Source of the DNA: a virus
Lineage: Duplodnaviria > Caudoviricetes
Virus record (IMG/VR): IMGVR_UViG_3300044691_000045
Location: 1 to 54,020 of that record
Strand: one strand, 5' to 3'
DNA length: 54,020 nucleotides
Position numbers and translations under genes: made by a program. A model generated the notes under the pieces. It did no database searches, was not told where the DNA came from, and was given only the letters and a program-made list of their open reading frames with translations. Below are positions 296 through 35,926 of the stretch, one piece after another (position 1 is the stretch's first letter; the number at the start of each line of letters is the position of its first letter).

Positions 296-305
296 AGTAG
301 AACCT

Positions 306-355: not shown

Positions 356-364
356 TTGGCAAAC

Positions 365-799
365 CTATCTGTTTACAATTCCCGGCGTAGGCGCGAAGTT
401 CACAGTTTGCTTTACTTGCGCTGCTGGTGCAGACACCTGTGCAACAGTAGTGCTGCTGCTCGCAATCTGTTTCGCCTGCATAATTACTTGCGGGAATGCT
501 GCGATGAATGCCTCAAATTCCTGTAGTGCTGACTGATCGGCACCGGCATTCAACAAACCTTGCTTGGCTGCCTCACCGCCGAGATGCAGCGCCGATGCCA
601 GTATGCCAAGCGCGGCATAGCTTACGCGCTCGATACCCACGATAGCGGGGCCGTAACCGGGCACCAGCGTTGACAGAGCCTCTACGGTAGGCTCAGTGCC
701 ATTGATCTTGAGCAACACGCCTGCAACCAACTCTGCGTCATGGGCGAGGGTTTGAAAGCCGCTAGCAATTGCGTGGTCAAAAGACGTAAAAATGCTCAT
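365..799 (-). CDS. Hypothetical amphipathic/membrane-associated protein (144 aa, MSIFTSFDHAIASG...)
   Basis: AAGGAG RBS precedes ATG 799; the longer ORF-track start overlaps the upstream gene. Confidence 0.7.
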   Translation of the reverse strand: MSIFTSFDHAIASGFQTLAHDAELVAGVLLKINGTEPTVEALSTLVPGYGPAIVGIERVSYAALGILASALHLGGEAAKQGLLNAGADQSALQEFEAFIAAFPQVIMQAKQIASSSTTVAQVSAPAAQVKQTVNFAPTPGIVNR

Positions 800-848
800 G
801 GGTAACGCTCCTTGTGCCAAAGGTACAGCAGGTTGTACAGCAGTTGGA

Positions 849-1154
849 CTACTTGATGTCTGCGACAGTTGCGGAGACAACAGCCTGTTTGGAGCTAGGG
901 GCCACTTCTGCGGTAGTAATCTTCTGTCCGTTGCGGTAGTTGAGATAGACGGCAACGGCAATGGGGAAACCTGCTTTGACCCAACCGGGAGCACCGGCGA
1001 TTGCGTGGTTAACGTTTGCCGCAATGCTGGCATCGGTGACATATAGCGCATACCCGCTTGCAAGCGCAACCGTAATGCCGTGAGTGAATCCGTTGTAGAC
1101 TTCCCAGAAGGTTTTTGGTTCATTTGATTTTACCGCCGCTACTGACGTTTCCAT
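849..1154 (-). CDS. Small membrane protein, holin-like candidate
   Basis: GAGGAG RBS, two moderately hydrophobic segments, hydrophilic C-terminus, and position upstream of the terminase. Confidence 0.5.
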   Translation of the reverse strand: METSVAAVKSNEPKTFWEVYNGFTHGITVALASGYALYVTDASIAANVNHAIAGAPGWVKAGFPIAVAVYLNYRNGQKITTAEVAPSSKQAVVSATVADIK

Positions 1155-1166
1155 TTGCGCTCCTCA

Positions 1167-1487
1167 TTAGGCCATATCCAGCTTTCCCTGTATTCGCGCT
1201 ACGTTACGCAAGTTATCGCGCATATCCGTATACTGCTGATCCTGCGTTTTCTGTAACTGCGAAATTTGTTCACGCATAGTTGTCATTTGCGTTTGCTGTG
1301 TTCTAACCGTTTTCTCTAGTGTTTCGTAACTCACAATTAAAGTTTTCAGTTTCGCGTTGTCTACAGCGTTGCGCAGGAAAAAACCCATGCCCAACCCTAT
1401 AACTGTTCCCACCGGGGTAAGCAGTTCTATAACACTTCTCAACCAATCTGGTAGCATGGTTGCAACTGCATAGCCCGCTTCACGCAT
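1167..1487 (-). CDS. Single-TM plus coiled-coil protein (lysis-module type)
   Basis: TM segment LLTPVGTVIGLGMGFFL followed by a heptad-rich Q/L region. Confidence 0.6.
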   Translation of the reverse strand: MREAGYAVATMLPDWLRSVIELLTPVGTVIGLGMGFFLRNAVDNAKLKTLIVSYETLEKTVRTQQTQMTTMREQISQLQKTQDQQYTDMRDNLRNVARIQGKLDMA

Positions 1488-1489
1488 TC

Positions 1490-1951
1490 TTACGCTGCCC
1501 CAAACGTTTTCTTAGTTATGGCTAACTCATGGTTAGCTATCCAGTGCAAATTCATTGCACGTTGGTGTATGTCTTTTATCTTGTGCCATTCCAGTACATC
1601 GGCTTCCTCTGTTCTACGCAGAGTTAAGCGCAGATTAGCAAGCTGTCCGCCGAGATAGGCAAAGGTGAAGAATGACACCATAGAGTGTATTGTCCACCAC
1701 ACTATAGCAATAGCAAACGTGTTATGAGCAATGCTGAAACACGTTATGAATTGCGATATAGAGCAAGAGTAGAAAAACACAGATAGAACAACATTCAAAG
1801 AATGATGCCCGGATTTGCGGTCATGGGTAAGAATGTGGAAGAGTACAGCAATGCCCAGAACAAAGACACCTGTTGCTGCTGAGTCAACCAAACGTATGTC
1901 AGCAGCGTACATATTAAAGCGTGTCGTCATTAGCCAGTGCTCTAAATACAT
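1490..1951 (-). CDS. 3-TM membrane protein resembling the ethylene-receptor (ETR1-type) sensor domain
   Basis: GGAG RBS before ATG 1951; three hydrophobic helices with the pattern D...(TM1)...FFYSCSISQ...VSFFT. Confidence 0.55.
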   Translation of the reverse strand: MYLEHWLMTTRFNMYAADIRLVDSAATGVFVLGIAVLFHILTHDRKSGHHSLNVVLSVFFYSCSISQFITCFSIAHNTFAIAIVWWTIHSMVSFFTFAYLGGQLANLRLTLRRTEEADVLEWHKIKDIHQRAMNLHWIANHELAITKKTFGAA

Positions 1952-1962
1952 ATAGTCTCCAG

Positions 1963-3807
1963 TTACAGCGTTGACGCTATTTGCATTTTGACCCACGTGC
2001 CAAACCCGTCAGCAGCATTGCTTTGCCAGCCGCCGCCGGGTGCTTCTGAGTCTATCGTGCATTTCCACCAAGCACCGTTATCTGTCTCTACCCACACTGT
2101 ACCGAAGGCCCATGCTGGCGTGCATGCTCCGCGTCCAGCACCGGAACCTTGCGGCGGTCCTGTGGTAGTCATGGTAAGAAAAGAACTCTGCGAAGCTGTG
2201 AAAGGACCGTCACCGTTGAAAAATAGTTTATCGCCAATGGCTAGCTCATTGAACACTAACCCTTGCGCAGCGGTAACATGCATTTCAACTAGCGCGGCAT
2301 TAGACATCTGCGGCGTGCCTGCTGTGCAGTAATTGTTAGTCGCTGTTGGCTCTGTAGTCTGCGTAAAACCCGGACCCCATGACCCCGATGTAACATTGAT
2401 AAAGCACGTAGCAAACGTGTTATCTGCTGCGTTGTCATGGATGCTGTAGTTATTTACAGCGTCTAGCTGTATCTGATCGTGATTGGTAGTATTGAAAAAG
2501 TTATCATGTATAGCGGTACCACCGGATTGACCGCCGTTTGTGCCCGGTACACCGTACAACGCTTGATTCGCAGTTACAGTTGTGGGCGAAGATTGGCCTA
2601 TCTTCATTGGCAGTTCTGCGCCCTCAAAGTATGCAAACTCTACTGAATCAGCGCGCGTCAAACCAAATGCTATCCCGCCTATACCATTTGATTCTACGTT
2701 TACGCCGATAAAATGGTTGTTGTAGTTTGGTGATTGCGTACCGGCTGCACCGTAGTTAAGACCGCCACCGCCATATGTTGCGCTTGTGGGGTAGATGTTA
2801 GAAAGACCATCTATAATACCCCAGCCACTATTATTGTTGTAGTTGCCGCCAATTACGGTAAATGCATTGCTGGCAAAAGCGGGACGCCCTTCCAAGTTCA
2901 ATCCATTCATGTTTGACTGTGCGGTATCATTGAATATGGTTACCACGTTAGCACCGCGGCTAATCATTCCATCCCCGGCTGTAAAACCAGTGATATTCAT
3001 ATTTTCGATAAGACCGCCCTGCTCTGCGCCGTCCATGCGTATTCCACTACGCGCGGAGGCTGTGCCTGTGAGTTTACCGCCGCTAATGTGAAAGTGATCC
3101 GCGCCAGTAAGTACCTCGATGCCTGTATCACTGCCTGTGTAATGCAACGTTACCTGTGGATCGATTTGCAGATAGTCATTCGCGGAAACAGGCAACTGCA
3201 TTGTTACGCTGTAGTTGTACGTAACACCCGGTACATACGGAACAAACACGTGAGTATGCGTAGCAAATGCTGTGTTAACCAGCGTTCCTACGTCTGTGCC
3301 ATTGGACGGCGCTACTGTACCCACACCGCTATCAGGATTTGAGTTGCCGGGAGGACCGACGGGACCGGCTATTGGAATAAAGGACGGCAATGGTACTGCA
3401 AACATACCTAGATTTTGCGTACACAGGTTAAACGGCGCAGAGCCTTCGATGTCTACGTTGTTGTAGATCGTAAACTTCTGCGTACTGGTATTTTGTATTG
3501 TAATGCGATAACGTATGTTAGTTGGCGATGTTCCGCTCGCATCCGCAACAGATAACGGTGTAACTAATTGCCCGTTGGATATGCTTCTAGTAACTACGTC
3601 TGTTGTTGCAATACCACCGCTGGCAAAAGTGAATGGCTGCGGCTTATTCGTCTGCGGATTGAACGCTTGAATATAGAACATGCCCGTAAGCATAGGTACG
3701 TTCGATGCGTCCATAATGCATGGCGAAGGCGTTGTAACCGGCGTTAGCGTCTGTGCTCCGGCAAAGGTTGCGAGCAAGAAAATAGTAGTTACAAGCCATG
3801 TACGCAT
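1963..3807 (-). CDS. Signal-peptide-bearing tailspike-like protein: N-terminal adaptor domain, short collagen linker, right-handed beta-helix (pectin-lyase-like) domain
   Basis: N-terminus MRTWLVTTIFLLATFAGA|Q; GPVGPPG linker; N/G-rich beta-helix repeats (IENMNITGF, NNNSGWGI, ESNGIGGI, IHDNFF). Confidence 0.7.
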   Translation of the reverse strand: MRTWLVTTIFLLATFAGAQTLTPVTTPSPCIMDASNVPMLTGMFYIQAFNPQTNKPQPFTFASGGIATTDVVTRSISNGQLVTPLSVADASGTSPTNIRYRITIQNTSTQKFTIYNNVDIEGSAPFNLCTQNLGMFAVPLPSFIPIAGPVGPPGNSNPDSGVGTVAPSNGTDVGTLVNTAFATHTHVFVPYVPGVTYNYSVTMQLPVSANDYLQIDPQVTLHYTGSDTGIEVLTGADHFHISGGKLTGTASARSGIRMDGAEQGGLIENMNITGFTAGDGMISRGANVVTIFNDTAQSNMNGLNLEGRPAFASNAFTVIGGNYNNNSGWGIIDGLSNIYPTSATYGGGGLNYGAAGTQSPNYNNHFIGVNVESNGIGGIAFGLTRADSVEFAYFEGAELPMKIGQSSPTTVTANQALYGVPGTNGGQSGGTAIHDNFFNTTNHDQIQLDAVNNYSIHDNAADNTFATCFINVTSGSWGPGFTQTTEPTATNNYCTAGTPQMSNAALVEMHVTAAQGLVFNELAIGDKLFFNGDGPFTASQSSFLTMTTTGPPQGSGAGRGACTPAWAFGTVWVETDNGAWWKCTIDSEAPGGGWQSNAADGFGTWVKMQIASTL

Positions 3808-3840
3808 AGCGGAATAGTACCATCCTGTCAACGAATCTAT

Positions 3841-6800
3841 CTAACGTTTCTTTCTACCGTGCGCGGCATACGTAGTCTGCTGCGCAAGCGACGTACCGCC
3901 AACGGCGGTAACTGTCAAGGCTAGACTGTCGCTGTGTGTCAATGAGCCAGAAACCGCCGTCCACAGACCTACAGCCGATACGCTGCTGCCTTGCCCACTC
4001 ACCAGCACAGCACTATTCGCTGGCACGTACACACCCGCATGGCCGCTGGTGATCGTGGCTGTGTAAGGCGCACCGGGCACTGGAGGCGTATAGCTTAACG
4101 GTGATCCTTGCAACAGCACATTCGTGTTTACCTTGTCAGTTAATCCAGACGCATCCGACAGTGTGATTATATTCGCAGACGATATAGCTGCTGGGAATGT
4201 AACAGCCATATTCATATTAGTTGTGGATTCGTTTAGAATCACAACTGCCTGTGACCCGTCTTGGTGCTGCAAGCCGTACGCTTTTACGTTGTTACCGCTA
4301 GACGTTATAGACGTAGATAGCATGCTAGCTTGCTGGTTACCTTGCGTAGCAAGCGTGAACAACAGCAAGCCTGCGTACTTTGGCTGCTCTTGGTATGTGT
4401 ATCCGTCACTGTCCTGAATAACTGAGTACGGGTTTGATGGCGCAGTTCCCATACCGCCTGAAATCCAATTGAGCATAACAGCGCCAGATTTTGCTACAAC
4501 AAAGTTAAAATCTATAGCGTACAGCGCAGAACTAAACGTGTTGGATACGCCGTCTAATCCTCCACTGTAGATGTCGTTTGTTTCGTTTAAAACCCACGCA
4601 TCCGGATAAGTTGCTTGCGTGGTATGGATGCCGCTAACCATAGAGTTAAAAAAGCCGTCTGATGCTGTAAAACTAAGCATCTCTGCTATAGTTCCAGTAG
4701 TAGGCCCGTCATGGTAAAAGTGTGACGTATCCCATAGCAACAGATCGGCATTGGCTGCCTCCATTGCTGTTGAATAAGTGCCAGCGCTCGTTGCAACTCC
4801 TGTTGACGGTCCTACAAACTGAGCACTAGGTACAGCGGCTTGAATAGCCAGCGCATACGTACGCCATGCTGTTGCAAATGAGGATGCTGTATAACCAGCG
4901 CCGGTATAGCCTGTGCCGTCTGGTTCGTTGCCTATCTCAAATGCAACCAACGATGATCCTAGCTTTGATGCAACGTAGGTTGCCTCCGCTACTGCGACAG
5001 ATGTGGTATTGCCTAGAAAGCGCAGACCGTACGTGCATTTCCATCCGGTAGCTGTAAGAAACGCAGCTAGGTTGTCCACGTCAGACTGTGAAATTTGCCC
5101 GGTTGTTTGTCCTGCTCCTGCTGGTGTCCATACCTCGTTATCGCCAGTAACTAAGCGCAGTGTGCCATTGCCTAAGCCTTTGAAATCAGCAATACCGCGT
5201 GCGTTGTTAGAAGCAAAGAAACGTGTACCTGCCATCAGCTTTGACTTAGTGTAAGACAAGCCTTGAAAGCCAGCCGGTATGTTGCCCACAACTGCGGTTG
5301 TCATGGTGACAGTGCCGCTCGCGGGTGACGACGGTACAGGCTGTAGATTGGTTGCCGCTGCTGCCGAAGTTAGGACAACAGCTTGCGTACCGTTCGCTGC
5401 TAGCGTGAATGAGCTAGGCGCGGCTGTTACCCCTGTGGGCAAACCAGCAACCGTTACTGCTGCTGTAGCTGCGAACGTTCCTAGAGCCGTAGATACTACG
5501 TTTACTGTTGCCGTAGAACCTACAGTCATTGTTAGCGTATCTGGCGTGACCGCTATAGTAAAGTCAGACGGCGCACCCGCGCACGTGCCTGATAGCTTTA
5601 CCGGCTCTGTACCTAGTACGAAAGTACCGCCTGTAATCGTTGTGACATTTCCGCGCAAGTCTGTCTTTGTGGGGTAGCAGGTTGATACAGTTGTATGACG
5701 CTCATAACCTGTATCAAACATAAACTGTACTGTGCTGCCATCGTTGTTAAGTGCAGTTGCAGACCATACAGAATTGTATTTTGCATGTGCGCCTGTTACA
5801 TCGTCAAAATGCGTTGTGAATCGATTGATATTGTTGATCCAACCTAGCACAGTTGCATGCGCTTGCCCTGCTGGATGGATGCCGACAGCGTTTGTAAACT
5901 GATGGTTGCTGCGGTAGCAATCTGCTGCATTGGTATAGCTTGATCCGATGTACTCTATACCAAAACACGCAACAGAGTGTAGCTCGATAACGCTGCAATC
6001 GCCTGTTTTTAAGTAAGGAGAGCAATACGCATTCGTTGTCTTAGAACGATACAATGTTAGACCGCCGCTACCTGTGGAATCAAACTGATACCAATTGCTA
6101 CCGATAGGACCGCAGCCACGCGTGCCGCAACCTGTACCGTACAATGGATTTTGTGAGTCAGCAGTTATCAGCGCTAGTTGTCCCATATAACCGCGCTGAT
6201 TTGTTGCTGTGAATGTCGCACCTGTTAGTGAATCGGTACGCGTGTCGTCCTGCATCTGATCATCGAAGTAATAGCCGCCCTCTGTTTCGAGCATAGGCGC
6301 ATCAGGCAGCATCCATGTTTTGCTCTGAATAACTGAGCGCATACGCTGTCTAATCTCGATAATGGAATAGTTGCAATGTTTGTTTGTAGACGTGATGTTG
6401 GAAGGCGTACACATGGAACTACCGAAACCTGTGCGATGAATATATGATCCAGTAGTATCTGTGTTACTACCACTACCGTCACCAGATATAGCGTTAGTAG
6501 CTCCTACACCGGGGAATACAACCTCTTGGTCGCTGTAGTCATGATAACTAATGCCTATACGTGGATTATTAGCAAGATCAGGCGCAACAATGTGAAATTG
6601 ATCCAGCAGCGAGTTCATGTTCTGATCGCACAGACCATTCGTGCCGCCTATCGAGTATTGCTTACCACCGCACGCCATTGATCCGATGTAGTATGTGCAA
6701 TCACCGCAATAAGCAAACACGATACGCGCTTCGTCTGCTTCCTGTGCAGCTAACCGCGTCCATGTACCGCTCTGTTGGCCCCATTGCTGCCCAGTATCGC

Positions 6801-7476
6801 TCTCGTTCACGCCCTCGAAATCATGAATACGGCATATGCCTACTAGCGGCGTTGCTGGTCTACTCTTTACACCGCACACTTTCTGCATAACAGCAGTATA
6901 AAACTCCTGCTTAATGCAGTCACCTTTTGCACCGCTAGGCGTATCGCCGGGAGCACCATTGACAGCCACATTACCGCAACTAATGTTAGCCATCGCTGTC
7001 TGTACTACGCCAGTATCGCTGTAATAACTATCGTATGGGCGCAACGATGGGTTATCGCGTGTATCACTGCAACCTGTTAGACCAAACGCGGAAGTAGACG
7101 CTGCGCCTGCCCAGTGCGGAATTGCAGAATCAGAAAATACAGTACGCGCGCCTATAGCTTCATTAGCAGGTATCCACGACGTAAGCGGATTTGCCTGCCC
7201 AGTAGCGGCAAGTAGATTACCGCTACCAGTCATGTTATACACGCCACGGCACGTATGTATGTTGTACTCAGCTTCGCCAGCATTCGCGCGGGAAAAATTA
7301 GGCGGAGCTATACCAACCTTGTTTATTGCATCCTGCAAGTCCAGCGGATGCAATACGTATACATCAAGCGGAGTTACGTTAGGATTGGTGCGAGGATCAA
7401 TAGGCACAGCCTGAGAAAAAGCAGCTATGCTGCAAAACAGCAATAGACTAGAAGTTATAAACTGCCGCAATTGCAC
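3841..7476 (-). CDS. Secreted multi-domain glycoside hydrolase: N-terminal clan-A-like domain, Ig-like linker, C-terminal GH79-like (beta-glucuronidase/heparanase family) domain
   Basis: Signal peptide ...FCSIAAFS|Q. GH79-type motifs GFQGLSY, LGNGTLR, FEIGNEPD (acid/base), LNETN (nucleophile), GVSNTFSSALYAIDF. The N-terminal half has EGVNESD and LETEGG. Confidence 0.75.
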   Translation of the reverse strand: MQLRQFITSSLLLFCSIAAFSQAVPIDPRTNPNVTPLDVYVLHPLDLQDAINKVGIAPPNFSRANAGEAEYNIHTCRGVYNMTGSGNLLAATGQANPLTSWIPANEAIGARTVFSDSAIPHWAGAASTSAFGLTGCSDTRDNPSLRPYDSYYSDTGVVQTAMANISCGNVAVNGAPGDTPSGAKGDCIKQEFYTAVMQKVCGVKSRPATPLVGICRIHDFEGVNESDTGQQWGQQSGTWTRLAAQEADEARIVFAYCGDCTYYIGSMACGGKQYSIGGTNGLCDQNMNSLLDQFHIVAPDLANNPRIGISYHDYSDQEVVFPGVGATNAISGDGSGSNTDTTGSYIHRTGFGSSMCTPSNITSTNKHCNYSIIEIRQRMRSVIQSKTWMLPDAPMLETEGGYYFDDQMQDDTRTDSLTGATFTATNQRGYMGQLALITADSQNPLYGTGCGTRGCGPIGSNWYQFDSTGSGGLTLYRSKTTNAYCSPYLKTGDCSVIELHSVACFGIEYIGSSYTNAADCYRSNHQFTNAVGIHPAGQAHATVLGWINNINRFTTHFDDVTGAHAKYNSVWSATALNNDGSTVQFMFDTGYERHTTVSTCYPTKTDLRGNVTTITGGTFVLGTEPVKLSGTCAGAPSDFTIAVTPDTLTMTVGSTATVNVVSTALGTFAATAAVTVAGLPTGVTAAPSSFTLAANGTQAVVLTSAAAATNLQPVPSSPASGTVTMTTAVVGNIPAGFQGLSYTKSKLMAGTRFFASNNARGIADFKGLGNGTLRLVTGDNEVWTPAGAGQTTGQISQSDVDNLAAFLTATGWKCTYGLRFLGNTTSVAVAEATYVASKLGSSLVAFEIGNEPDGTGYTGAGYTASSFATAWRTYALAIQAAVPSAQFVGPSTGVATSAGTYSTAMEAANADLLLWDTSHFYHDGPTTGTIAEMLSFTASDGFFNSMVSGIHTTQATYPDAWVLNETNDIYSGGLDGVSNTFSSALYAIDFNFVVAKSGAVMLNWISGGMGTAPSNPYSVIQDSDGYTYQEQPKYAGLLLFTLATQGNQQASMLSTSITSSGNNVKAYGLQHQDGSQAVVILNESTTNMNMAVTFPAAISSANIITLSDASGLTDKVNTNVLLQGSPLSYTPPVPGAPYTATITSGHAGVYVPANSAVLVSGQGSSVSAVGLWTAVSGSLTHSDSLALTVTAVGGTSLAQQTTYAAHGRKKR

Positions 7477-9805
7477 CGTTGCCTCCGTCAGTACCTAGTG
7501 TAGTGCCGCAAACTGTTGTGCTGTGTAATCCGCCGTTTGCTGTCACCTGAGTAGCGAAAAGATTGTTGCCGAAGTTATAGCCCATTGCTTCTAGCAGTAT
7601 GTTACCAGCGCCGCCGCCTGCGCCGGATAGCGATGTTCCGCCTGCGCACGGTCCACCGGGACCACCATCCGCACTAATCCGTCCGGTAGAACTGATAAGT
7701 AAGAATGTCGTTTTGATGTAGACAAAACCGCTAGGTTGACCGCCGAAGCCGCCTAGATGCGTACCGTCACCAAAGCCGGGAGCACCCTGCGCGCCGAAGC
7801 CGTGCTGTATCATCTCGCGCAGCAATGGCCCTGCGCCGGGGATCGTGAGGCCCGTAGTAGCGCTCATTCCCGCAACAGCAGAGGTACCACCGCCTAGCGG
7901 CGTGGATTGGTTAGGGTATTGCCGCCTTCCGCCGCCGTTGATCGCTGTAGTGCCGCCGCCAGCGCCGCCCTGCCCACCGGCAAGCGGAGTGAATGCAGAG
8001 CTTGTGCTTGTCTGTCCTGAAACCGTGCCAGCAATTGCGCCCGTTGCTGCTAGGCTACACGTACCGGATACTGCCGCAGGCCACTGCGATGTAAATGCAA
8101 TACCGCCAAGAGATGCAATGGTTGCAGATGGAACGTGGCTATTTATAATTCCAGCACCGTAGCACAGGAATGATGAAAAGTGTGCATAGCCATCTATGAA
8201 TGCTGTTGTACCGTTGACAGTGAATGAGCCGCTTAGACCATTACCGCCGTTTGCCATGATTGCAAACGGAGATGTACCATACATGAATGGCGCAGCAAAC
8301 AGTGTAAACGTGCTTCCATTGTAGCCAACATCCCCAAGCGCAACAACCTGTGGCGATGCTACCGACCATCCAGCAGTAGTTGTGCCGTCGCCTGTTGTAC
8401 TAGTCATCCACAACTGTGTAGACATATCGAACCAATACGCAGGATTAGAGACAGTACCGGAATTGATCGGCGTGTTTATCTCAAATTGCACAATTGGCGC
8501 AGTTGTTGTATCTATCCACGTAAGACTGCCGCAACTTCCATCTGACTGAGCAATAAAAGATGCAAACGGAAAGTGCATGCCAGCAATAGCACTGGGAGTT
8601 ACAGTATTAGTTCCTACCCAACTACAAGTGCCACTGCTATTATTCATAACTAGCGGCTGCGTAGATGTTCCGCGTTCGATAAACGTATTACCGCTGTAGC
8701 GTAAGTAATCTGGAATGCCGAGTGTGGGCGACGTTGTTACAGGTCCGGATACTACAGAATTTGCAACAGTAGAGTACAGCGCAGAGGACGCGCCTAGCGT
8801 CTGGTTAGACGGATTGTAGGTTAGCGGCGGTTGTGCCACAGCTACACCCGGCGTACCTTGCGCACCGGGCGCACCCGGCGTACCGTTAGCGCCATTGGCA
8901 CCGTTCGCACCAGCAGGCCCAGCCGGTATGCCCACATTCAGGGCGTACAGCGTGCCGCTGGGATTAGTTACGCTGATAGTCGGTGACGCACCATTGGCTA
9001 GTCCTATTGCAGTGCCAGCCTGAAAGGTAGGTGTTACGCCTGCGCTACCTGCTGGTCCTGTTGGCCCGGTTGCGCCTGTTGCGCCTGTTGCGCCGGTTGC
9101 TCCTGCTGTACCTGCTGGTATAGATACATCTAACGCAAACACGTGTGTGCTTACAGTGCGTACAGTAACAGACGGCAATGTACCCGCACTTGTCTGTGTA
9201 GTTGTACCGCTAATAAACGATGGCGGAGTTGTACCGCTTATACCTGCTATCTGCGCAGCAACATACGCCTGATCCGCAAGCGGAGAACCACCGGAGCTAG
9301 TAAGCGCACCCTTCAGTGTTGCACCATTCAACAGTGTTGTAACTGTGTCTGATGTGATAGTAGTGGTACCGTTGGATAGATTCAGGCCGTACGTACCAGC
9401 TACCGGCTGTGATCCGTTGTAAGTTTGCAGAATAATCGTACCGGCTAATAGATCAGTTGGCGACGTAGCCGCCTGTGATGCCGTACCGCTGGGAGATGTG
9501 CAATAGTTCCACGTAAGTGGCGCAAACGTTTGTGTAGCGAATGTAAACGTTTGCTTATTGAATACGTCAATCAAACGCACAGTGTACGTACCTGCTTGCA
9601 CGATCATGCGCGGAGATACAGTACCGTTTATTACTGCTGCGTATTGGGTTAGTCCCGCACCTGTGGGAGTAACAACAAGAGCGCCTTGCTGTTCCAATCC
9701 AGACGCGCCAGTAACGCAGCCATCGCCAAGCACTGTTACACTGGCTTGTCCAAAGAGCAAAGGTGCGCAAAGCGCTAGATATAAGCATAAAACAATTTTA
9801 CGCAT
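7448..9805 (-). CDS. Signal-peptide-bearing collagen-like fibre protein with glycine-rich C-terminal domain
   Basis: MRKIVLCLYLALCAPLLFG|Q; Gly-X-Y runs (GATGATGATGATGPTGPAG, GANGANGANGTPGAPGAQG); duplicated ...ALxVxIPAG module; GGGGAG-rich C-terminus typical of phage fibres. Confidence 0.75.
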   Translation of the reverse strand: MRKIVLCLYLALCAPLLFGQASVTVLGDGCVTGASGLEQQGALVVTPTGAGLTQYAAVINGTVSPRMIVQAGTYTVRLIDVFNKQTFTFATQTFAPLTWNYCTSPSGTASQAATSPTDLLAGTIILQTYNGSQPVAGTYGLNLSNGTTTITSDTVTTLLNGATLKGALTSSGGSPLADQAYVAAQIAGISGTTPPSFISGTTTQTSAGTLPSVTVRTVSTHVFALDVSIPAGTAGATGATGATGATGPTGPAGSAGVTPTFQAGTAIGLANGASPTISVTNPSGTLYALNVGIPAGPAGANGANGANGTPGAPGAQGTPGVAVAQPPLTYNPSNQTLGASSALYSTVANSVVSGPVTTSPTLGIPDYLRYSGNTFIERGTSTQPLVMNNSSGTCSWVGTNTVTPSAIAGMHFPFASFIAQSDGSCGSLTWIDTTTAPIVQFEINTPINSGTVSNPAYWFDMSTQLWMTSTTGDGTTTAGWSVASPQVVALGDVGYNGSTFTLFAAPFMYGTSPFAIMANGGNGLSGSFTVNGTTAFIDGYAHFSSFLCYGAGIINSHVPSATIASLGGIAFTSQWPAAVSGTCSLAATGAIAGTVSGQTSTSSAFTPLAGGQGGAGGGTTAINGGGRRQYPNQSTPLGGGTSAVAGMSATTGLTIPGAGPLLREMIQHGFGAQGAPGFGDGTHLGGFGGQPSGFVYIKTTFLLISSTGRISADGGPGGPCAGGTSLSGAGGGAGNILLEAMGYNFGNNLFATQVTANGGLHSTTVCGTTLGTDGGNGAIAAVYNF

Positions 9806-9814
9806 GAAATGCTC

Positions 9815-10522
9815 CTAGATCGGTCGTGATATTTTGTGCGGTACTGCTGCTGTGGTTGTTTCTTTGAAAGCAATGCCCATGAATGCGCCTGTATTGGCTG
9901 TTGTAGGGGCATAAGGTAACGCTGTAGATGCTGTAGTGTTAATTGCTCCTGTATACGCATTGCCGCTGGCAGGAAAATCACCTGGCGATGTAAATGGAGC
10001 GCTAGCGCCGGTAATAGAAGCATTCCACTGTACACACTGCACAATCACATCATTAGTGCCGGTTAGAGTCAACGCGACATTAGTAGGGGCAGCAGACGTA
10101 CTTTGACTTCTCAGACCGGAGGTATCGTAAATAGCAGGTCCGGAGGTTGTTGAATACTCAAAAATTTCAAATTCGCCGCCGTTTGTTACACTTGTGGTAG
10201 CTGTAATTGTCGTGTTACCGCTAGTGGATGATAGCGTGTAATAGGCATCGATAGCATTGTTGGTTACTAATGCGTTGCAACTTGGGCAATGCACCCAAGT
10301 CATTGCCGTTCCGCCTGTGCTAGACATCGCAGTCATGGCACCTGAAGACGACGGGATAGTACGTACGGCAACGATCAGATGACTCGCGCCTGTCGCAGTC
10401 GTGGTTACGGCACAGGTTGTAGCAGTGGGGCAACTGGAATTTATCGGATGCTGTACAAGCGTCCATGTAGCACGCGCTTGTGCTGATACCAACAACAAAA
10501 GTGCGAATATAGGTATACGCAT
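9815..10522 (-). CDS. Secreted S/T-rich beta-sandwich protein
   Basis: Signal peptide MRIPIFALLLLVSAQARA|T; translationally coupled to the upstream gene. Confidence 0.75.
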   Translation of the reverse strand: MRIPIFALLLLVSAQARATWTLVQHPINSSCPTATTCAVTTTATGASHLIVAVRTIPSSSGAMTAMSSTGGTAMTWVHCPSCNALVTNNAIDAYYTLSSTSGNTTITATTSVTNGGEFEIFEYSTTSGPAIYDTSGLRSQSTSAAPTNVALTLTGTNDVIVQCVQWNASITGASAPFTSPGDFPASGNAYTGAINTTASTALPYAPTTANTGAFMGIAFKETTTAAVPHKISRPI

Positions 10523-11166
10523 CAGTTAGCCTGCACAGTTAACGCGCGTGGAATTGTAAGCTGTACGCCAAGCACATACGCTGCTGTGGCTGTGTCTGTG
10601 CCGCGCACTACCTTTACTTTCATCAAACCACCGGCAAGGCATCCCGTAGTGGTCATGCTAGTAAGCGTAGCTGTCCACATCTGATTGCCTACCGTGCCTA
10701 GCGTTATTGTGCTCATAGCTTGCACCGTATTAAAAGCAACATCATCGGAGGTTGATCCGTCGCCTTTTTCACATGATGTTGCTAGCTGCATAATGATGGT
10801 ATGCCCACTCGTTACATCCGACGTTGCGACATAGAGCCTAGCATTCAGCGCAGTTGTGCTATCCCAATCCAGCGGCAACGCTACAGTAAACTGTGCCGAG
10901 TTTGTATCTGCAAAGTTTAGCGCCGCATCCAGCGTGTTAGCTCCGATGCGCGTAGTAGCGGCTGGACCGCCCGATGCGGGTATATTCCAGCTTGACGACG
11001 CGGTACCGGAGATAATACCAGCAGAGGGTACATACTTAGTATCCGGCACAGTTGCTATGTTTGCCATAGGCAGCTTGTTCTTAACTTGCGAAGTCAAGTC
11101 TACCTTGTTCTGTGCGAGCGCACACATGCTACACAACAGCAACAGACTAGTAACGATACCACGCAT
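10522..11166 (-). CDS. Secreted beta-rich protein
   Basis: Signal peptide MRGIVTSLLLLCSMCALA|Q; AGGAG RBS. Confidence 0.75.
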   Translation of the reverse strand: MRGIVTSLLLLCSMCALAQNKVDLTSQVKNKLPMANIATVPDTKYVPSAGIISGTASSSWNIPASGGPAATTRIGANTLDAALNFADTNSAQFTVALPLDWDSTTALNARLYVATSDVTSGHTIIMQLATSCEKGDGSTSDDVAFNTVQAMSTITLGTVGNQMWTATLTSMTTTGCLAGGLMKVKVVRGTDTATAAYVLGVQLTIPRALTVQAN

Positions 11167-11503
11167 AAACGTTTGCTCCTGTGGGCACTGTCTGTACCGC
11201 TGTTAGCGTAGCACCGGAAATAGTATAATCAACTGTTTGTTGCCAAGTAACACCATTAACTACAAGAATTAAACTTAGCGAAGGACTAGGCGCGTGTGCA
11301 AGCGTTGCTGATCCACTGGCAAACGTAACTGCTTCGCTGTCCGCAAAATTCATCTTTGCGCTAGTGGGTAACATAGTGTTGTCTATGAACCCACTTGCAT
11401 TCAACTCAGGTATCTTACCAGCAGAGCCAGCACCCGCCGATGTTGCAACGGTTGCTGTCTCTGTCGGTTGCCCGGATACGTTTTTTAGTAGCTTTGTCGG
11501 CAT
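11147..11503 (-). CDS. Small virion-decoration-like protein; N-terminus paralogous to 11510..12022
   Basis: TSAGAGSAGKIPELNASGFIDNTML aligns with TSAGAGDAGKIPALNGSGLIDPTML; C-terminal VNGV..Q..DYTISG module. Confidence 0.7.
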   Translation of the reverse strand: MPTKLLKNVSGQPTETATVATSAGAGSAGKIPELNASGFIDNTMLPTSAKMNFADSEAVTFASGSATLAHAPSPSLSLILVVNGVTWQQTVDYTISGATLTAVQTVPTGANVYAWYRY

Positions 11504-11509
11504 GTTTCC

Positions 11510-12022
11510 TTACGCGAGTACGATAGTAAACAGCGACGGCTGGAAATAAAACGTGCTTGCGGACGTAGCGCGACCAATGGATTGCAGCAAGTTACCTGCT
11601 GTAGCCGGAGGCGTAGCAGTTGCCGCACCATTTGTGCCAAGGTAGTACAATCCGGTAGACAACGCAGACAACCCGGTAATCAAGCCCTCGCCCATCGTGA
11701 TAGAACCAGATGCACCGCTGGTGATACCTGCGCTCGCAAAGCCATTGGCTTCGCTACCTGCTGTAGTATTGTCAGCAGGCTTTACTTGTAACACGGTACC
11801 AGACCATGATACGTTGACGATTTGACCGGCTGTGATCGTTGCGGTTGCAGTTGCAGTAACAACAATCAAGCCGCTTGTCGCTGCAAGCATAGTTGGATCA
11901 ATCAAGCCACTACCGTTAAGTGCAGGAATCTTGCCAGCATCTCCAGCACCAGCAGACGTTTGTATTGCCGCTTTCTCTGTTACTTGTCCTGCGCTGTTAA
12001 AAAGATACTTATTACCTGCCAT
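11510..12022 (-). CDS. Capsid decoration/head-fibre-like protein (DUF2190-like C-terminal fold)
   Basis: AAGGAG RBS; pattern ITAGQIV..PAD..ANGFA..YYLGTNG..QSIGRA. Confidence 0.6.
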   Translation of the reverse strand: MAGNKYLFNSAGQVTEKAAIQTSAGAGDAGKIPALNGSGLIDPTMLAATSGLIVVTATATATITAGQIVNVSWSGTVLQVKPADNTTAGSEANGFASAGITSGASGSITMGEGLITGLSALSTGLYYLGTNGAATATPPATAGNLLQSIGRATSASTFYFQPSLFTIVLA

Positions 12023-12031
12023 GTGTTCTCC

Positions 12032-12823
12032 TTATGGTGCTAGTAAGATAGGTGGCTGCATTTGAATAAGCAACTGTGTTGCTGAAATTGGCACACCTAT
12101 TACCTGCACAAAGCCGGTAGATGGTGGCGTCTGTGTGAGCATCCCAGATGTACCTAGAAATACAGGCTTTGACGTATCAAATGCCCAGCCTGCATTAACG
12201 AGTGTTCCCCCGTTTTGAATGCTTACCGTACCACCTGCCGAAGCACCATTTGCCGCTACGCCCACAACCATATCTAGGTGGCCTAGTAAGCTGTTGTCTG
12301 CGTATTGAACTACACCATTGACAACAGCAATAACGCGGTACTGCCCTATACCTACTGTTGTGGTTAAATTGAGAACTGACGCAGTACCGGGCGCACCCGG
12401 CGGCCCTTGTGGGCCAACTACCAGAGTGCTGGGTATAGTTGGATTAGCGAGCGCCGAGTTCCATAGACCGAAATCAAAGGTAATGCCATCTGTTGCGTTT
12501 GCTGTGATGTTTACCAGCGTGTACGTAGTACGTACTAGCGTGCTACTGCTGTGATCCTCAACAATGAATGTGAACAGCAACCCGTTTGGCGACGTGTAAC
12601 GGGGATCAGGCAGGGATAGAGCATCGCCCGTATGCGCCGGGAATAGCCAGCCTTTGTATATCAGGAACTCGTACGGCTCAAGCGAAGCCTGCCCACCGCC
12701 ATCTAGCAGATAGGGTATAGCTTGCGCGTTCTGATCGGTCGCGTACACTAGCAACTTACCTATGGCTATAGGTTGGCTACCAGCGCCAGACAACGCAGAC
12801 GCAGCGATAGGAACTGTGCGCAA
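12032..12823 (-). CDS. Adaptor-domain + collagen linker + head-fibre-like protein (no signal peptide)
   Basis: N-terminal domain similar to that of 1963..3807; GPQGPPGAPG linker; C-terminal YAD..VVGVA..PVFLG..LTQTPP..VIG. Confidence 0.65.
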   Translation of the reverse strand: MRTVPIAASALSGAGSQPIAIGKLLVYATDQNAQAIPYLLDGGGQASLEPYEFLIYKGWLFPAHTGDALSLPDPRYTSPNGLLFTFIVEDHSSSTLVRTTYTLVNITANATDGITFDFGLWNSALANPTIPSTLVVGPQGPPGAPGTASVLNLTTTVGIGQYRVIAVVNGVVQYADNSLLGHLDMVVGVAANGASAGGTVSIQNGGTLVNAGWAFDTSKPVFLGTSGMLTQTPPSTGFVQVIGVPISATQLLIQMQPPILLAP

Positions 12824-12824
12824 T

Positions 12825-13298
12825 TTAGTAGATACCGTAGGTAATGAGTGCTTGCGCGCCCGTTGGTGCTACTGACATATTCAGGCACAATCCATTGCCC
12901 ACAGGAACAGACAAGCCGCCTCCCATAGTAAATGATTCCTGATAGGTGTCTGTGACAGATGCCGTGCCTAGAAACAGCGGCGTTACTGTCGTGGTTCCGG
13001 TAACGCACGCTGCGCCTGTACCAGCGGCAAGGCCGAAGTTAGCAGGCGTGGCCGTCTGCTTTACTTTGAGGGTAACTGTGCAGATGTGGATGGATTGACG
13101 CGATGGAACCGTAGTAGGTACAGCGCCGTTGTACAGCGTAGTAGCTCCGGTAGGCGCAGTGACAAGCTGTGTCTCGCCTGCGGCTACGCTGGACACTGCT
13201 ACAGCATAAGGGCAGATGGCAGAGCCACCATTGCCGCGCTGCGCGAGAACCGCGCTGGGGAGGAGTAAGAGTGCAGCAGCAGCTAGAAACAGGCGCAT
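12825..13298 (-). CDS. Secreted Cys-containing beta protein
   Basis: Signal peptide MRLFLAAAALLLLPSAVLA|Q; AGGAG RBS; four Cys. Confidence 0.75.
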   Translation of the reverse strand: MRLFLAAAALLLLPSAVLAQRGNGGSAICPYAVAVSSVAAGETQLVTAPTGATTLYNGAVPTTVPSRQSIHICTVTLKVKQTATPANFGLAAGTGAACVTGTTTVTPLFLGTASVTDTYQESFTMGGGLSVPVGNGLCLNMSVAPTGAQALITYGIY

Positions 13299-13334
13299 GT
13301 GTATCTCCTGTTTTGCAGGCTAGCACACAGACAC

Positions 13335-13361
13335 AAAAGGCGCATCATAAAGATGCGCCTT
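13335..13361 (-). terminator. Rho-independent terminator
   Basis: Stem AAGGCGCATC / GATGCGCCTT followed by Ts on the minus strand. Confidence 0.7.
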
Positions 13362-13383
13362 GCATGCAACCAAAAACTTGTGC

Positions 13384-13719
13384 TTATAGCGTGACACCAC
13401 CAGTAGCGGCGGCTGGGGTAGGCGTAGGCGTAGGCGTGAGTGCTGCGTTGTCAGCGGTAAGCAACTGCTGCAAGATCACGTCCACTGCCTGAATGTGGGC
13501 AACCTGCGCGGCAGTATCCGGAGTCTGCGGCCCTGCCAGCAACTTGGCAAGAATCGCAGCATTGCTGGTTTTGAGCGTAGCCACGTCGGTGTCTACAGTA
13601 CCCAATGCCTTGTCGATGTCGGTCAAATCCATGTTGACTGTTCTCCTCAAATCTTCGATAGAACTGCGGATGTCTGCAAGAGCCGTTAACACGTGATTTT
13701 GAAAACGGCGCTCATTCAT
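13384..13719 (-). CDS. Coiled-coil hypothetical protein with PT-repeat tail; second in-frame start at 13632
   Basis: Strong GAGGAG RBS before internal ATG 13632 (MDLTDIDK...); TPTPTPTP tail. Confidence 0.7.
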   Translation of the reverse strand: MNERRFQNHVLTALADIRSSIEDLRRTVNMDLTDIDKALGTVDTDVATLKTSNAAILAKLLAGPQTPDTAAQVAHIQAVDVILQQLLTADNAALTPTPTPTPAAATGGVTL

Positions 13720-13730
13720 AGCCTATAAAG

Positions 13731-14045
13731 CTAGTCGTCCAGCACGGCAGTGTCAAGTTTTTCTTCGTCATCTACCCACAAATAGAGCGTTTTTTTATCG
13801 CTAGATCGTTGGTAGAACAACTGTCCAACAAAAGGTGCGCCGTGTTTCTTTGTATGTGCGTTAATACGCTGTAGTAGGTAACCGGCTTCTTTTGTTGTCC
13901 CAACGTCAACCGCAATAGCTTGGTCCTTACCTACAGCTTTTGCCAGTGCAGTTAACAGTAGAGATGTGTACGAATTGCCGTTGTATTCATCTGCCGGTAT
14001 CTCGGAGCGCCGGACAGTAACAAAGCGCAACTCTCGGTTGCCCAT
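13731..14045 (-). CDS. Hypothetical protein, possibly DNA-binding
   Basis: GAGG RBS; fits the operon. Confidence 0.65.
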   Translation of the reverse strand: MGNRELRFVTVRRSEIPADEYNGNSYTSLLLTALAKAVGKDQAIAVDVGTTKEAGYLLQRINAHTKKHGAPFVGQLFYQRSSDKKTLYLWVDDEEKLDTAVLDD

Positions 14046-14277: not shown

Positions 14278-14823
14278 TTAGGAATCGCGCCAGACACGCA
14301 CGCCCTTAACGCCGTTCTCTTCCACCGACCGTGTAGAGAACTTGCGGTCATACGCAAGCACCTGTACGGTCTTGCCTTTGGCATTCACGCGCGTCTGTCC
14401 GGTTGGTTTGCCGAAGCGCCGCGCTGCCGATGAAACGATGCTCGGAAACGTCTTTTGCACGTTGGGCATCGCTGCCGAAACCGGGACAAAGAACGACTGT
14501 CCGGGCTGCATCTGTGCGAACGGATACATGCTGTTGCCAGCACCGCCGCGCCGCATCGCTGGCTTTACGATACCGCTGTCCAGCGTAAACACAGGCCGTT
14601 CCTTCGGTGCGCTCTGCTCGGAACTTGCGCCCGATACGGTGGAGATGTCCAGCGCGCGCACGCCGATGTGACCGTCCGGCAAACCGGCAACCGCCGCATT
14701 CAACTCTACCTTTTCGGGATCGAGTTCGTTCGCCTTGTCTTGTGGCAGAACGGCATAGCCATTCGCCTTCGTCTGCTCAACAACTGTTGCGTACAGCGAT
14801 GCCTTTTCTTTCTTTGAAAGCAT
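14278..14823 (-). CDS. Putative DNA-binding protein (YPF..M..GQSFFVP family)
   Basis: Motif RRGG..SMYPFAQMQPGQSFFVP...GVRVWR, paralogous to 18776..19021; has its own promoter. Confidence 0.7.
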   Translation of the reverse strand: MLSKKEKASLYATVVEQTKANGYAVLPQDKANELDPEKVELNAAVAGLPDGHIGVRALDISTVSGASSEQSAPKERPVFTLDSGIVKPAMRRGGAGNSMYPFAQMQPGQSFFVPVSAAMPNVQKTFPSIVSSAARRFGKPTGQTRVNAKGKTVQVLAYDRKFSTRSVEENGVKGVRVWRDS

Positions 14824-35639: not shown

Positions 35640-35926
35640 GTTGCTATTGCATCTACTGTACAAAAATAAGAGAGGATAAGCTAATGAGCAAAACACCGGA
35701 TGAAGTCTTACGCGAACAATCAGCCAACTTACCAGATAATGCAGAGCGCATAGATATTAGCGTTGTATCCGACAAGTACAAGGTACAACCGTATGTAGGT
35801 GGCGCTGTCGCAGTTATCTACATCTCTAACATGCCTGCTAGAATGCAGATTTACCGCACGGTATTCTACGGTCCAGAAGCGGAAGAAAGAGCACGCGAAT
35901 ACGCTAAGTGGAAGAATCAAAGCTAG
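35636..35926 (+). CDS. Hypothetical protein
   Basis: Last gene of the plus-strand operon; converges with the tail gene. Confidence 0.55.
   Translation: MSCYCIYCTKIREDKLMSKTPDEVLREQSANLPDNAERIDISVVSDKYKVQPYVGGAVAVIYISNMPARMQIYRTVFYGPEAEERAREYAKWKNQS

Follow-up and report, generated by a model that had tools for sequence, protein, structure and literature searches.

Sec-type leaders on six genes of an inserted fibre and glycosidase block in a soil siphovirus: a candidate module for late docking on the virion

Introduction

Can a tailed phage send parts of its host-recognition gear out of the cytoplasm and still use them on its particles? In the textbook account, tailed-phage assembly is wholly cytoplasmic. 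The question is raised by a block of nine minus-strand genes in IMGVR_UViG_3300044691_000045, a whole virus record of 54,020 bp (analysed in its entirety and called the window below) whose ends carry a direct repeat of 127 bp and whose completeness is estimated at 100%. The record apparently represents the complete genome of a virulent, long-tailed soil phage, a siphovirus with a lambda-type tail. In the block, which runs from 13298 to 1963, fibre-, spike- and glycosidase-like proteins with Sec-type leaders are encoded next to fibre-type proteins without leaders. A first-pass annotation had proposed that the leader-bearing proteins fold in the periplasm and either join virions or act away from them. 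Here, the block is read as an accessory host-recognition and glycan-cutting module that would be spread over two compartments, with late docking of exported parts on the virion. We regard this reading as evenly poised. Export itself is much firmer.

Results

Six of nine block genes begin with Sec-type leaders

All nine late-strand open reading frames (ORFs) claimed in the first-pass annotation were recovered. They are consecutive, tightly packed and co-oriented with the late genes, and they show coupled or overlapping starts. The genes are named by the length of their products in amino acids (aa), and ↓ marks the putative cleavage site:

12825..13298, minus strand: g157, 157 aa; leader MRLFLAAAALLLLPSAVLA↓Q; 4 mature Cys; AGGAG 6 nt upstream
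12032..12823, minus strand: g263, 263 aa; leaderless, Cys-free fibre piece; phrog_4368 (E 2.6e-19); N-domain hidden Markov model (E 2e-39)
11510..12022, minus strand: g170, 170 aa; leaderless, Cys-free; phrog_4368 (E 1.3e-11); AGGAG site
11147..11503, minus strand: g118, 118 aa; leaderless, Cys-free, small and fibre-like; weak match to phrog_2710, tail fibre (E 0.0027)
10522..11166, minus strand: g214, 214 aa; leader ending CALA↓Q; 2 mature Cys; body homologous to the C-terminal tip of long leader-bearing fibres
9815..10522, minus strand: g235, 235 aa; leader ending ARA↓TW; 5 Cys; start coupled to the g214 stop
7448..9805, minus strand: g785, 785 aa; leader ending LLFG↓Q; 8 mature Cys; Cys-bearing N-part, two Gly-X-Y runs and Gly-rich C-part
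3841..7476, minus strand: g1211, 1211 aa; leader ending AAFS↓Q; 21 mature Cys; Cys-rich N-domain, Ig-like domain and GH79 module; GGAGG 5 nt upstream
1963..3831, minus strand: g622/g614, 622 aa (from 3831) or 614 aa (from 3807), called g614 below; leader ending FAGA↓Q; 6 mature Cys; beta-sandwich N-domain, linker and right-handed beta-helix

In six of the nine ORFs, a basic n-region is followed by a hydrophobic stretch and by small residues at positions -3 and -1. Their best nine-residue windows have a mean Kyte-Doolittle hydropathy of 2.6–3.1, and each leader holds at least one K/R, no D/E and an A/G/S-type site. The leaders end in AVLA↓Q, CALA↓Q, (AQ)ARA↓T, LLFG↓Q, AAFS↓Q and FAGA↓Q, so that Gln would be exposed at +1 in five of the six, as had been claimed. 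For g235, the mature start is most likely TW, as in its single homologue. Since an automatic best-site rule picked earlier sites for the 785-aa and 1211-aa proteins, the exact cleavage positions remain putative. By the usual motif definitions, neither a lipobox (L-[AS]-[GA]-C) nor a twin arginine (RR) was present in the six N-termini when these were read directly.

Leaders were called by a home-made heuristic (best nine-residue hydropathy of at least 2.0, at least one K/R before it, no D/E, a small -3/-1 site). Among the 80 greedily called ORFs of the whole genome, this rule flagged exactly the six block ORFs, which bears out the earlier count of six Sec-type signals in nine genes. The probability that six of 80 would all fall in one given set of nine is 2.8e-7.

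The starts agree with this. AGGAG or GGAGG lies 5–9 nt ahead of the starts at 13298, 11166, 9805 and 7476, and at 10522 the ATG shares bases with the stop of the gene before it (TGATG). For the last block gene, the start may be TTG 3831 or ATG 3807, both of them ahead of the leader. The first-pass annotation had allowed that the true starts might lie downstream of the hydrophobic segments; no comparable ribosome site was found at the starts just behind any leader. Thus, on the basis of the ribosome sites and the coupled start, the leaders are a translated part of the proteins.

Leaders and cysteines occur together

The six mature leader-bearing proteins contain 46 Cys in 3074 residues (4, 2, 5, 8, 21 and 6 in g157, g214, g235, g785, g1211 and g614, respectively), and the three leaderless block proteins contain none in 551 residues. 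For 18 head, tail and packaging proteins, the count is 39 Cys in 5855 residues. The earlier remark that several of the proteins are Cys-rich therefore stands.

An exhaustive HMMER search with g614 returned 76 proteins, one of which is a fragment of g614 itself. By the leader rule, 50 of the 75 distant homologues keep a leader, a check that the first-pass annotation had called for, and Gln stands at +1 in 40 of these 50. A profile of the g614 N-terminal domain (N-domain), built from residues 22–133, matched 32 proteins in the collected set, 31 of them near-complete. Among the 31 near-complete domains, at least two Cys were found in 24 of 25 leader-bearing and in 3 of 6 leaderless cases, the Cys pairs occupying one of two alternative positions. 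The three Cys-free N-domains are all leaderless: g263, a 224-aa protein of contig L087 and protein P0045. In two of the three leaderless cases with Cys, a hydrophobic leader follows a long N-terminal extension that probably stems from a mis-called start. The association between leader and N-domain Cys pair had a Fisher p of 0.016 as called and of 0.0035 after these two mis-called cases were moved. In g1211, the N-domain has nine invariant Cys in common with leader-bearing chromosomal proteins of Acidobacteriaceae.

From this covariation, the sequences behave as if leader-bearing forms fold in an oxidising compartment and leaderless forms in the cytoplasm. Export is thus supported by covariation with cysteines and across homologues and not by the N-termini alone, and the six proteins are very probably exported via Sec. 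The proposal of export with periplasmic disulfide folding has come out well supported by the translated leaders, the 50 of 75 homologues, the Cys pairs and the Cys-free leaderless neighbours. Four of the leader-bearing g614 homologues (P0033, P0044, P0051, P0064) lie on contigs of 44.9–52.8 kb, a length typical of phage genomes, and these may be further phages with such fibres.

The block encodes fibre pieces, a predicted spike and a putative double glycosidase

For g614, a model built from 45 sequences reached a mean predicted local distance difference test score (pLDDT) of 78.9. It comprises the N-domain (residues 22–133, with Cys30/Cys129), a flexible linker (134–157, with GPVGPPG) of low confidence, and a body in which residues 160–500 are mostly above 85. 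In the PDB, the model matched the full-length P22 tailspike first (E 3.2e-6), followed by alginate epimerases, GH87 and the CBA120, Det7 and Depo32 spikes. Against viral models (BFVD), 207 matches at E ≤ 0.001 were obtained, mostly pectate-lyase or tailspike proteins. In addition, 6, 5 and 4 of 45 g614 homologues matched the families Beta_helix, Pect-lyase_RHGA_epim and NosD, respectively. g614 is therefore predicted from its model to be a tailspike-like beta-helix depolymerase, in line with its earlier label as a beta-helix spike.

The largest protein, g1211, carries a GH79 module at residues 712–1159, which matched a Burkholderia enzyme (5bwi, E 6.4e-42) and the beta-glucuronidase of Acidobacterium capsulatum (3vny/5g0m, E 1.5e-34). 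The earlier glycosidase label is thereby confirmed for this gene. FEIGNEPD and LNETN of g1211 align with FEIGNEPD and LAETN of 5bwi; we take the Glu of the GH79 N-E-P motif (acid/base) and the nucleophile Glu to be the catalytic residues in this alignment. The Cys-rich N-domain of g1211 spans about 400 residues with invariant NE and TEG motifs. It had no match in Pfam or in a profile search of PDB sequences, and one of its homologues had one weak match to Pfam Cellulase (E 0.0025). Because of the NE/TEG motifs and this single weak match, the N-domain is read as glycosidase-like, and g1211 as a putative double glycosidase.

g785 combines a Cys-bearing N-part with two runs of eight Gly-X-Y triplets; g263 holds three such triplets and g614 two. 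The best Pfam Collagen score on the block was 17.3 bits, below the cut-off of 27.2. Of the earlier collagen-fibre label, the Gly-X-Y runs are visible in these three proteins. An Acidobacteriaceae prophage encodes a leader-bearing protein of 1775 aa, and the C-part of g785 shows 34% identity to a portion of it. Since its N-part was not matched by the N-domain profile, g785 is not counted among the N-domain proteins. We predict it to be a collagen-stalk fibre.

The whole mature body of g214 matches a fibre tip. It is 31% identical to residues 518–702 of a long leader-bearing fibre on contig L088 (E 3e-14), 34% to the C-terminus of a 1369-aa prophage protein (E 6e-21) and 37% to a homologue in genome G034. 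g235 has one leader-bearing homologue (41% identity) in one Acidobacteriaceae genome, and the mature start is ATW in both. For g157, no match was found in Pfam, PHROGs or NCBIfam; NCBIfam gave no match for any of the nine block proteins.

The three leaderless genes had been described as decoration-like and interleaved with the others. They are in fact contiguous and resemble fibre pieces in PHROGs, not head decoration. g263 has the same N-domain as g614 (blastp E 0.002), a short Gly-X-Y run (GPQGPPGAPG) and a C-domain in common with g170 (E 2.5e-4). g170 in turn has an N-terminal motif in common with g118 (58% identity over 48 residues), and the 3' end of g118 overlaps the g214 start by 20 nt. 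From their PHROG matches, g263, g170 and g118 look like phage fibre pieces.

The N-domain is a possible particle anchor

Modelled alone, the g614 N-domain had a pLDDT of 85.3. The P22/Sf6 head-binding domain made up 8 of the first 10 Foldseek rows for this model, with E-values of 0.02–0.1. In an all-against-all structural search, the best match was a cyanophage neck fibre (Z 7.8). The comparison with 9e7m_Ta, i.e., lambda Stf residues 1–94, gave Z 7.2 and a root-mean-square deviation of 2.4 Å over 84 of 94 residues. The arrangement of N-domain, linker and shaft in the g614 model is suggestive of the Stf plan. In Ur-lambda, twelve Stf N-domains form a collar at the tube/gpM junction, and a flexible linker some 10 residues long connects each collar domain to a trimeric fibre (PMC12617516). 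Within the one phage studied here, the same N-domain is carried by leader-bearing g614, with a Cys pair, and by leaderless, Cys-free g263.

Leader-bearing relatives occupy fibre slots in other phages

The alignment of g614 homologues (A1) was too diverse for a locus scan, and the single protein P0064 was used. On two unrelated siphovirus contigs, L087 and L088, a J-like protein (phrog_1101) and a small leaderless, Cys-free protein are followed by leader-bearing, Cys-rich proteins. The N-domain is carried by leader-bearing proteins in L088 and by the leaderless protein in L087. The L088 fibre (702 aa) unites the N-domain and a g214-like tip in one chain.

A scan with this 702-aa fibre yielded 24 contigs including its own, with 19 whole ORFs; five were cut or not callable. 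All 19 have a leader, which ends AQ↓N or GQ↓N. In 16 of the 19, a J-like gene ends less than 1.5 kb upstream, and the fibre is often the sole large gene there. Residues 1–165, i.e., leader and N-domain, are 51–74% identical among these relatives, and the remainder diverges. A conserved N-terminus and a variable C-terminus behind J are the usual signature of a particle-anchored receptor-binding protein.

In Acidobacteriaceae prophages of genomes G100 and G034, giant leader-bearing proteins are encoded immediately upstream of the terminase, a placement that resembles that in the window; in G100, a region with a CI-like repressor adjoins. No leaderless fibre candidate was recognised in these prophages. 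They are related and compact (G100:C3 at about 100–130 kb, loci L142 and L143; G034:C2 at about 122–150 kb, loci L147 and L148) and lie beside the same acyltransferase-like gene; each encodes two or three large proteins (250–1775 aa), leader-bearing and rich in Cys, just ahead of the large terminase. A further locus, L179, belongs to a relative with a 43% identical J protein; at 3212–5152 on its plus strand, a 646-aa ORF stands in the row of tail-tip genes and shows a leader-like SFNADA↓QK if read from the 11th codon.

Searches for the block as such found little. Neither megablast against cultured phages nor tblastn of g614 gave close relatives of the block, and g263 matched only two records of Acidovorax phage ACP17 (35% identity, 37% of the query covered). 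When IMG/VR was scanned with g614 and g263, no close relatives of the block were returned, and a scan of GTDB contigs with g1211 returned no close relative. In a word-index search, g614 matched only itself and the g785 C-part matched nothing.

The block is an insertion next to the lysis genes

Upstream of the block, the minus strand carries RusA (15297–14902), a DUF7303 gene and two small genes; downstream lie a membrane protein and an Rz-like spanin. The following features mark the borders:

14278..14823, minus strand: DUF7303 gene, the conserved upstream flank (Pfam E 3.9e-37)
13337..13361, minus strand: terminator-like hairpin with a 10-bp stem, 6 G-C and a T-rich tail, between the upstream small gene and g157
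1490..1996, minus strand: membrane protein immediately downstream of the block; about three hydrophobic helices; no family match in Pfam or PHROGs
1167..1487, minus strand: Rz-like i-spanin candidate, a last-step lysis gene (phrog_739, E 5.7e-6)

The hairpin was the strongest of the scan, in which the total number of hairpin sites did not exceed that in shuffled sequences; it may be the upstream transcriptional boundary of the block.

DUF7303 homologues (35–51% identity) were found in 24 IMG/VR contigs, and 15 of the 24 also have a homologue of the large terminase (47–61%). For the remaining nine, no terminase homologue was found within the available DNA. In the 15 relatives that show both flanks, the large terminase starts 1.2–3.6 kb downstream of DUF7303, with lysis and small-terminase genes only in between; in the window, about 14.4 kb separate the two. 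By tblastn at E ≤ 1e-5, no match to any of the nine block proteins was found in the 24 contigs. The block thus accounts for the difference between the 38–46 kb of the DUF7303 relatives (long contigs) and the 54 kb of the window. That it is an accessory insertion of 11.3 kb is strongly supported.

The membrane protein at 1996–1490 is a holin candidate by its position and hydrophobicity only. Just upstream of the small terminase, two long minus-strand ORFs (365–1123 and 849–1154) overlap in different frames, neither with a family match in Pfam or PHROGs; the second (101 aa) has two hydrophobic segments and may be a second holin or an antiholin. The small-terminase gene itself spans the record ends (window 1–295 and 53721–54020), which fits a circular assembly with the 127-bp repeat. 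No endolysin was recognisable in the lysis region (window 365–1996), which holds the multi-helix membrane protein, the Rz-like spanin and the ORFs without family. One of the leader-bearing proteins of obscure fold might conceivably have an exported muralytic role. When 41 ORFs between DUF7303 and terminase in ten relatives were compared with the window, only the small terminases matched. It seems that the lysis cassette was replaced together with the inserted block or next to it.

The remainder of the genome is that of a lambda-tail-type siphovirus

In PHROGs, a full siphovirus gene set was found on the minus strand, in the order large terminase, portal, scaffold, major head protein, connectors, tail protein, chaperones, tape measure, M/L/K-like tip proteins and J-like protein. 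The plus strand carries the replication genes DNA polymerase A, clamp-like factor, helicase, Cas4-type exonuclease, SSB and Sak4-like annealase, and the primase gene lies on the minus strand. The end of the tail module is as follows:

35923..38670, minus strand: J-like central tail protein, 915 aa (phrog_469, E 2.6e-186; phrog_31, central tail fiber J)

The J-like gene closes the tail module; beyond its end at 35923 lie replication genes that converge on it, in agreement with the earlier observation that no fibre gene follows it. Its product is the sole leaderless receptor-binding candidate in the backbone. The J-like protein contains 14 Cys in 915 residues, and the other 17 virion and packaging proteins contain 0–6 Cys each. 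The portal is at most about 50% identical to portals of cultured phages, and the closest of these belong to Pseudomonas phages like phage 73. When 67 ORF translations were scanned with PHROGs, neither an integrase nor a repressor family was matched, and a search of the window for tRNA genes gave none.

The host is probably a member of the Acidobacteriaceae

To our knowledge, few phages are known for the Acidobacteriaceae. The block modules point to this family. A metagenome-assembled genome (MAG) of the Acidobacteriaceae encodes a leader-bearing protein of 969 aa, a portion of which shows 54% identity to the GH79 module of g1211 (E 1.1e-154). In a search of 5.8 billion proteins with the GH79 module, the best named match again came from this family, and the other named matches were at 31–32%. 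In a comparison sample of 151 Acidobacteriaceae genomes, the N-terminal part of g1211 (Cys-rich and Ig-like) matched 42, mostly via the Ig-like domain; matches to the Cys-rich domain were obtained in five (E 1e-19 to 1e-26). Each of g785, g214 and g235 matched one genome, the homologues of g785 and g214 lying in prophages.

The +1 Gln fits as well. Among leader-like ORFs of Acidobacteriaceae MAG G001 (400 kb, loci L100–L119), Gln is the commonest +1 residue (11 of 48); under the same rule, it stands at +1 in 1 of 46 in E. coli (200 kb, loci L149–L152; p 0.004). By eye, many G001 leader-like ORFs end A-Q or G-Q, a habit like the Q-rule outside the Bacteroidota. A glutaminyl cyclase (PF05096, plant/bacterial type) was found in one of five Acidobacteriaceae genomes tested. 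A Bacteroidota host, raised by the +1 Gln, was rejected in view of the strong Shine-Dalgarno sites used by the phage and the Acidobacteriaceae affinities. Bacteroidota rarely use Shine-Dalgarno sites.

A DNA link was sought by comparing window positions 14001–54000, i.e., the part outside the block region 1–14000, with the 151 genomes; only short matches and no CRISPR spacer were found. From the homology of the modules, the host family is given as probably Acidobacteriaceae. The best DNA match was a 16-nt palindrome, TGTTCCACGTGGAACA, with exact copies at 18235–18250 and 19500–19515 in the early intergenic region, against 0.02 expected by chance. It occurs in 116 of the 151 genomes (114 of 149 without the unpublished G003 and G026), often in pairs 30–50 nt apart and in up to 40 copies, and its reversed control occurs in one of 151. 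The palindrome is also present in one Geobacter and one Verrucomicrobiota MAG, for which reason it was rejected as a host marker; it was absent from one Bacteroidota and one Chloroflexota genome. The phage has probably adopted the site, operator or DnaA-box-like, of a host factor with a wide distribution.

Discussion

How could such a set of proteins work? In the reading that we favour, g263, g170 and g118 would be made and folded in the cytoplasm. The six other proteins would pass Sec, lose a type-I leader, after which five of them would start with Gln, and fold with disulfides in the periplasm. Export would give the phage access to disulfide-dependent modules of the kinds secreted by the host. 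The exported proteins would wait in the periplasm until a holin opens the inner membrane, and virions would meet the periplasmic pool no later than when the outer membrane is breached by the spanin. Those exported proteins that have an anchor domain, a stalk or a tip (g614, g785, g214) might then dock near the tail tip as side fibres or spikes, for which the leaderless fibre pieces on the tails may serve as sockets, and the enzymes would cut glucuronic-acid-containing and other exopolysaccharide (EPS) around the host. Late docking of this kind may be likened to that of lambda Stf and the P22 tailspike, which can join late in assembly. Tailspikes and tail fibres, such as those of P22 and T4, can join finished particles in vitro. 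Docking of exported proteins on virions after lysis has about the same chance of occurring as of not occurring.

Several points weigh against this reading as a whole. The presence of the six proteins on virions is a prediction from sequence and model comparisons. The leaders were judged by a home-made rule, not by SignalP, and this rule over-calls: it flagged 46 of 169 E. coli ORFs (200 kb, alternative starts allowed). Transthyretin-like and pilin beta-sandwiches also reach Z 6–7 with the N-domain, so that its match to the Stf collar does not stand out; the Foldseek E-values are weak, and a profile search of PDB sequences with the N-domain gave nothing significant. No anchor or stalk was seen in g1211, g157 or g235, and g1211 has no fibre module. 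The block does not stand beside the tail genes but lies 22 kb from J, and all 15 relatives that show both flanks lack it. In the one J relative with a readable downstream region, J is again the last tail gene and faces a polymerase gene, i.e., the tail ends with J alone. The body of g614 has chromosomal, non-prophage relatives in 7 of the 151 Acidobacteriaceae genomes, and the host itself was assigned from homology of modules, not from a spacer or an isolate.

The six proteins might instead be exported and never sit on a virion, an alternative that we consider a real possibility, though the less probable one. They would then be free periplasmic or released enzymes and binders acting on host exopolysaccharide or receptor glycans; trimming from within and around the burst would free progeny, open the matrix or remove receptors, and the leaderless three would be side fibres of the virion. 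Such free action fits a block that is an add-on missing from the 15 relatives and heads the late strand beside the lysis genes, not the tail. It also fits g1211, which is built solely of secreted host-family modules (GH79, Ig-like repeat, Cys-rich N-domain), and the g614 body, whose chromosomal relatives stand beside ribosomal operons in two Acidobacteriaceae genomes. WceF, with a P22-like head domain and a beta-helix, is a free exported enzyme (PMC7949094). Free action fits less well with the finding that leader and N-domain are conserved behind J in 16 of 19 contigs while the C-terminal parts vary, that g614 and leaderless g263 have the N-domain in common, that g785 has collagen-type stalks, and that g214 equals the tip of a complete fibre. 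Moreover, free enzymes would have no evident route across the outer membrane before lysis. Of the two fates named in the first-pass annotation, joining virions has therefore been raised by the anchor-like N-domain and the fibre-slot relatives (16 of 19), and action off the virion is still viable in view of the add-on block, g1211 without a fibre module and WceF. The further option of superinfection exclusion found no specific support.

Two other explanations are much weaker. The block might be host-derived cargo (a 'moron') that serves the bacterium or has no role in infection, its fibre-like features being incidental. Its enzyme modules are closest to chromosomal Acidobacteriaceae genes, a terminator-like hairpin precedes it, relatives lack it, and it is flanked by replication/recombination genes on one side and the lysis cassette on the other, a place used for cargo in lambdoid phages. 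Against this, the PHROGs scan of 67 ORF translations revealed no integrase or repressor family, so that there is no evident lysogenic state for cargo to act in; the nine genes share the orientation of the late genes and are packed tightly with them, their starts being coupled or overlapping; three of them are phage fibre pieces, and N-domain and tip modules recur in the fibre slots of other phages. We therefore consider cargo improbable. Less probable still, to the point of being hardly credible, is that the hydrophobic N-termini are mis-called starts or uncleaved segments and the proteins ordinary cytoplasmic fibres. The over-calling of the rule and the ambiguous start of the last gene would allow this. 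It is at odds with the ribosome sites ahead of the leaders, with no supported alternative start; with leaders in 50 of 75 distant g614 homologues and in all 19 relatives of the L088 fibre; and with leaders that accompany Cys pairs and show a +1 Gln habit matching that of the likely host family.

Known systems each resemble the block in part. Ur-lambda Stf (9e7m) belongs, like the proteins studied here, to a siphovirus with a lambda-type tip (tape measure, M/L/K-like and J proteins), and it has an N-terminal beta-sandwich of about 90–110 residues, a linker and a trimeric shaft (PMC12617516). Stf, however, is leaderless and encoded next to J, whereas g614 carries a Cys pair and a Sec leader and is encoded within an inserted block, 22 kb away from J. 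No sequence similarity of g614 to Stf was found, and the structural match is no better than that to generic beta-sandwiches. P22-type tailspikes (2xc1, 1lkt), CBA120 TSP3/4, Det7 and Depo32 have an N-terminal domain and a right-handed beta-helix in common with g614; unlike it, they are leaderless and joined to the particle in the cytoplasm, with 10–18% identity to g614 and N-domain E-values of 0.02–0.1.

WceF of Pantoea stewartii is exported and consists of a P22-like head domain, a neck and a trimeric beta-helix; this tailspike-like trimer leaves the cell via Tat and cleaves the exopolysaccharide stewartan (PMC7949094). Thus, tailspike architecture can work outside the cytoplasm. In contrast to the block, with its phage late-strand genes, Sec-type leaders and many Cys, WceF is encoded by a bacterial gene in an EPS cluster, carries a Tat signal, is exported folded and acts off the virion. 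Residues 712–1159 of g1211 align over the whole of the GH79 enzymes 5bwi and 3vny/5g0m, with FEIGNEPD and (L/A)ETN, but the module is fused behind Cys-rich glycosidase-like and Ig-like domains and is encoded by a phage. The Gln exposed in five of six block proteins and in 40 of 50 leader-bearing homologues resembles the Bacteroidota Q-rule for signal peptidase I substrates (PMC5837995). It differs in that strong Shine-Dalgarno sites are used here and that the modules point to Acidobacteriaceae, whose phylum is mentioned 0 times in the Q-rule paper. No paper describing Sec-exported fibres or spikes of tailed phages was found in the literature searched, which excluded most subscription journals. 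A rumen-phage paper only counts signal peptides (PMC5723332).

The window is a non-Bacteroidota, probably acidobacterial case, in which the block is inserted away from the tail and contains chimeras with glycosidase modules of the secreted host type. Within this one block, there is a clean contrast between three Cys-free leaderless and six Cys-rich leader-bearing fibre-type genes. The anchor-type domain is present in both forms in one phage, and the GH79 module has a testable activity; the probable Acidobacteriaceae host adds to this. Even if the exported proteins act off the virion, the block would be a rare lytic-phage set of secreted matrix-degrading enzymes. If they dock, a wider picture may follow, which we put forward at slightly less than even confidence: a tailed phage would complete its particle outside the cytoplasm, with Sec-exported, oxidatively folded fibres and spikes docking between the holin and spanin steps or after lysis, and would recruit disulfide-dependent secreted glycosidase and lectin domains of its host as receptor-binding gear, a practice that might be widespread in soil phages. 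Were host-recognition parts routinely exported and added late, the annotation of fibres and depolymerases would change, since leaders are now read as evidence against a virion role, and the production of such proteins would call for export or for oxidising strains. Lysis would also provide an assembly chamber as a further function of its steps, and the borrowing of secreted host enzymes by phages would be explained.

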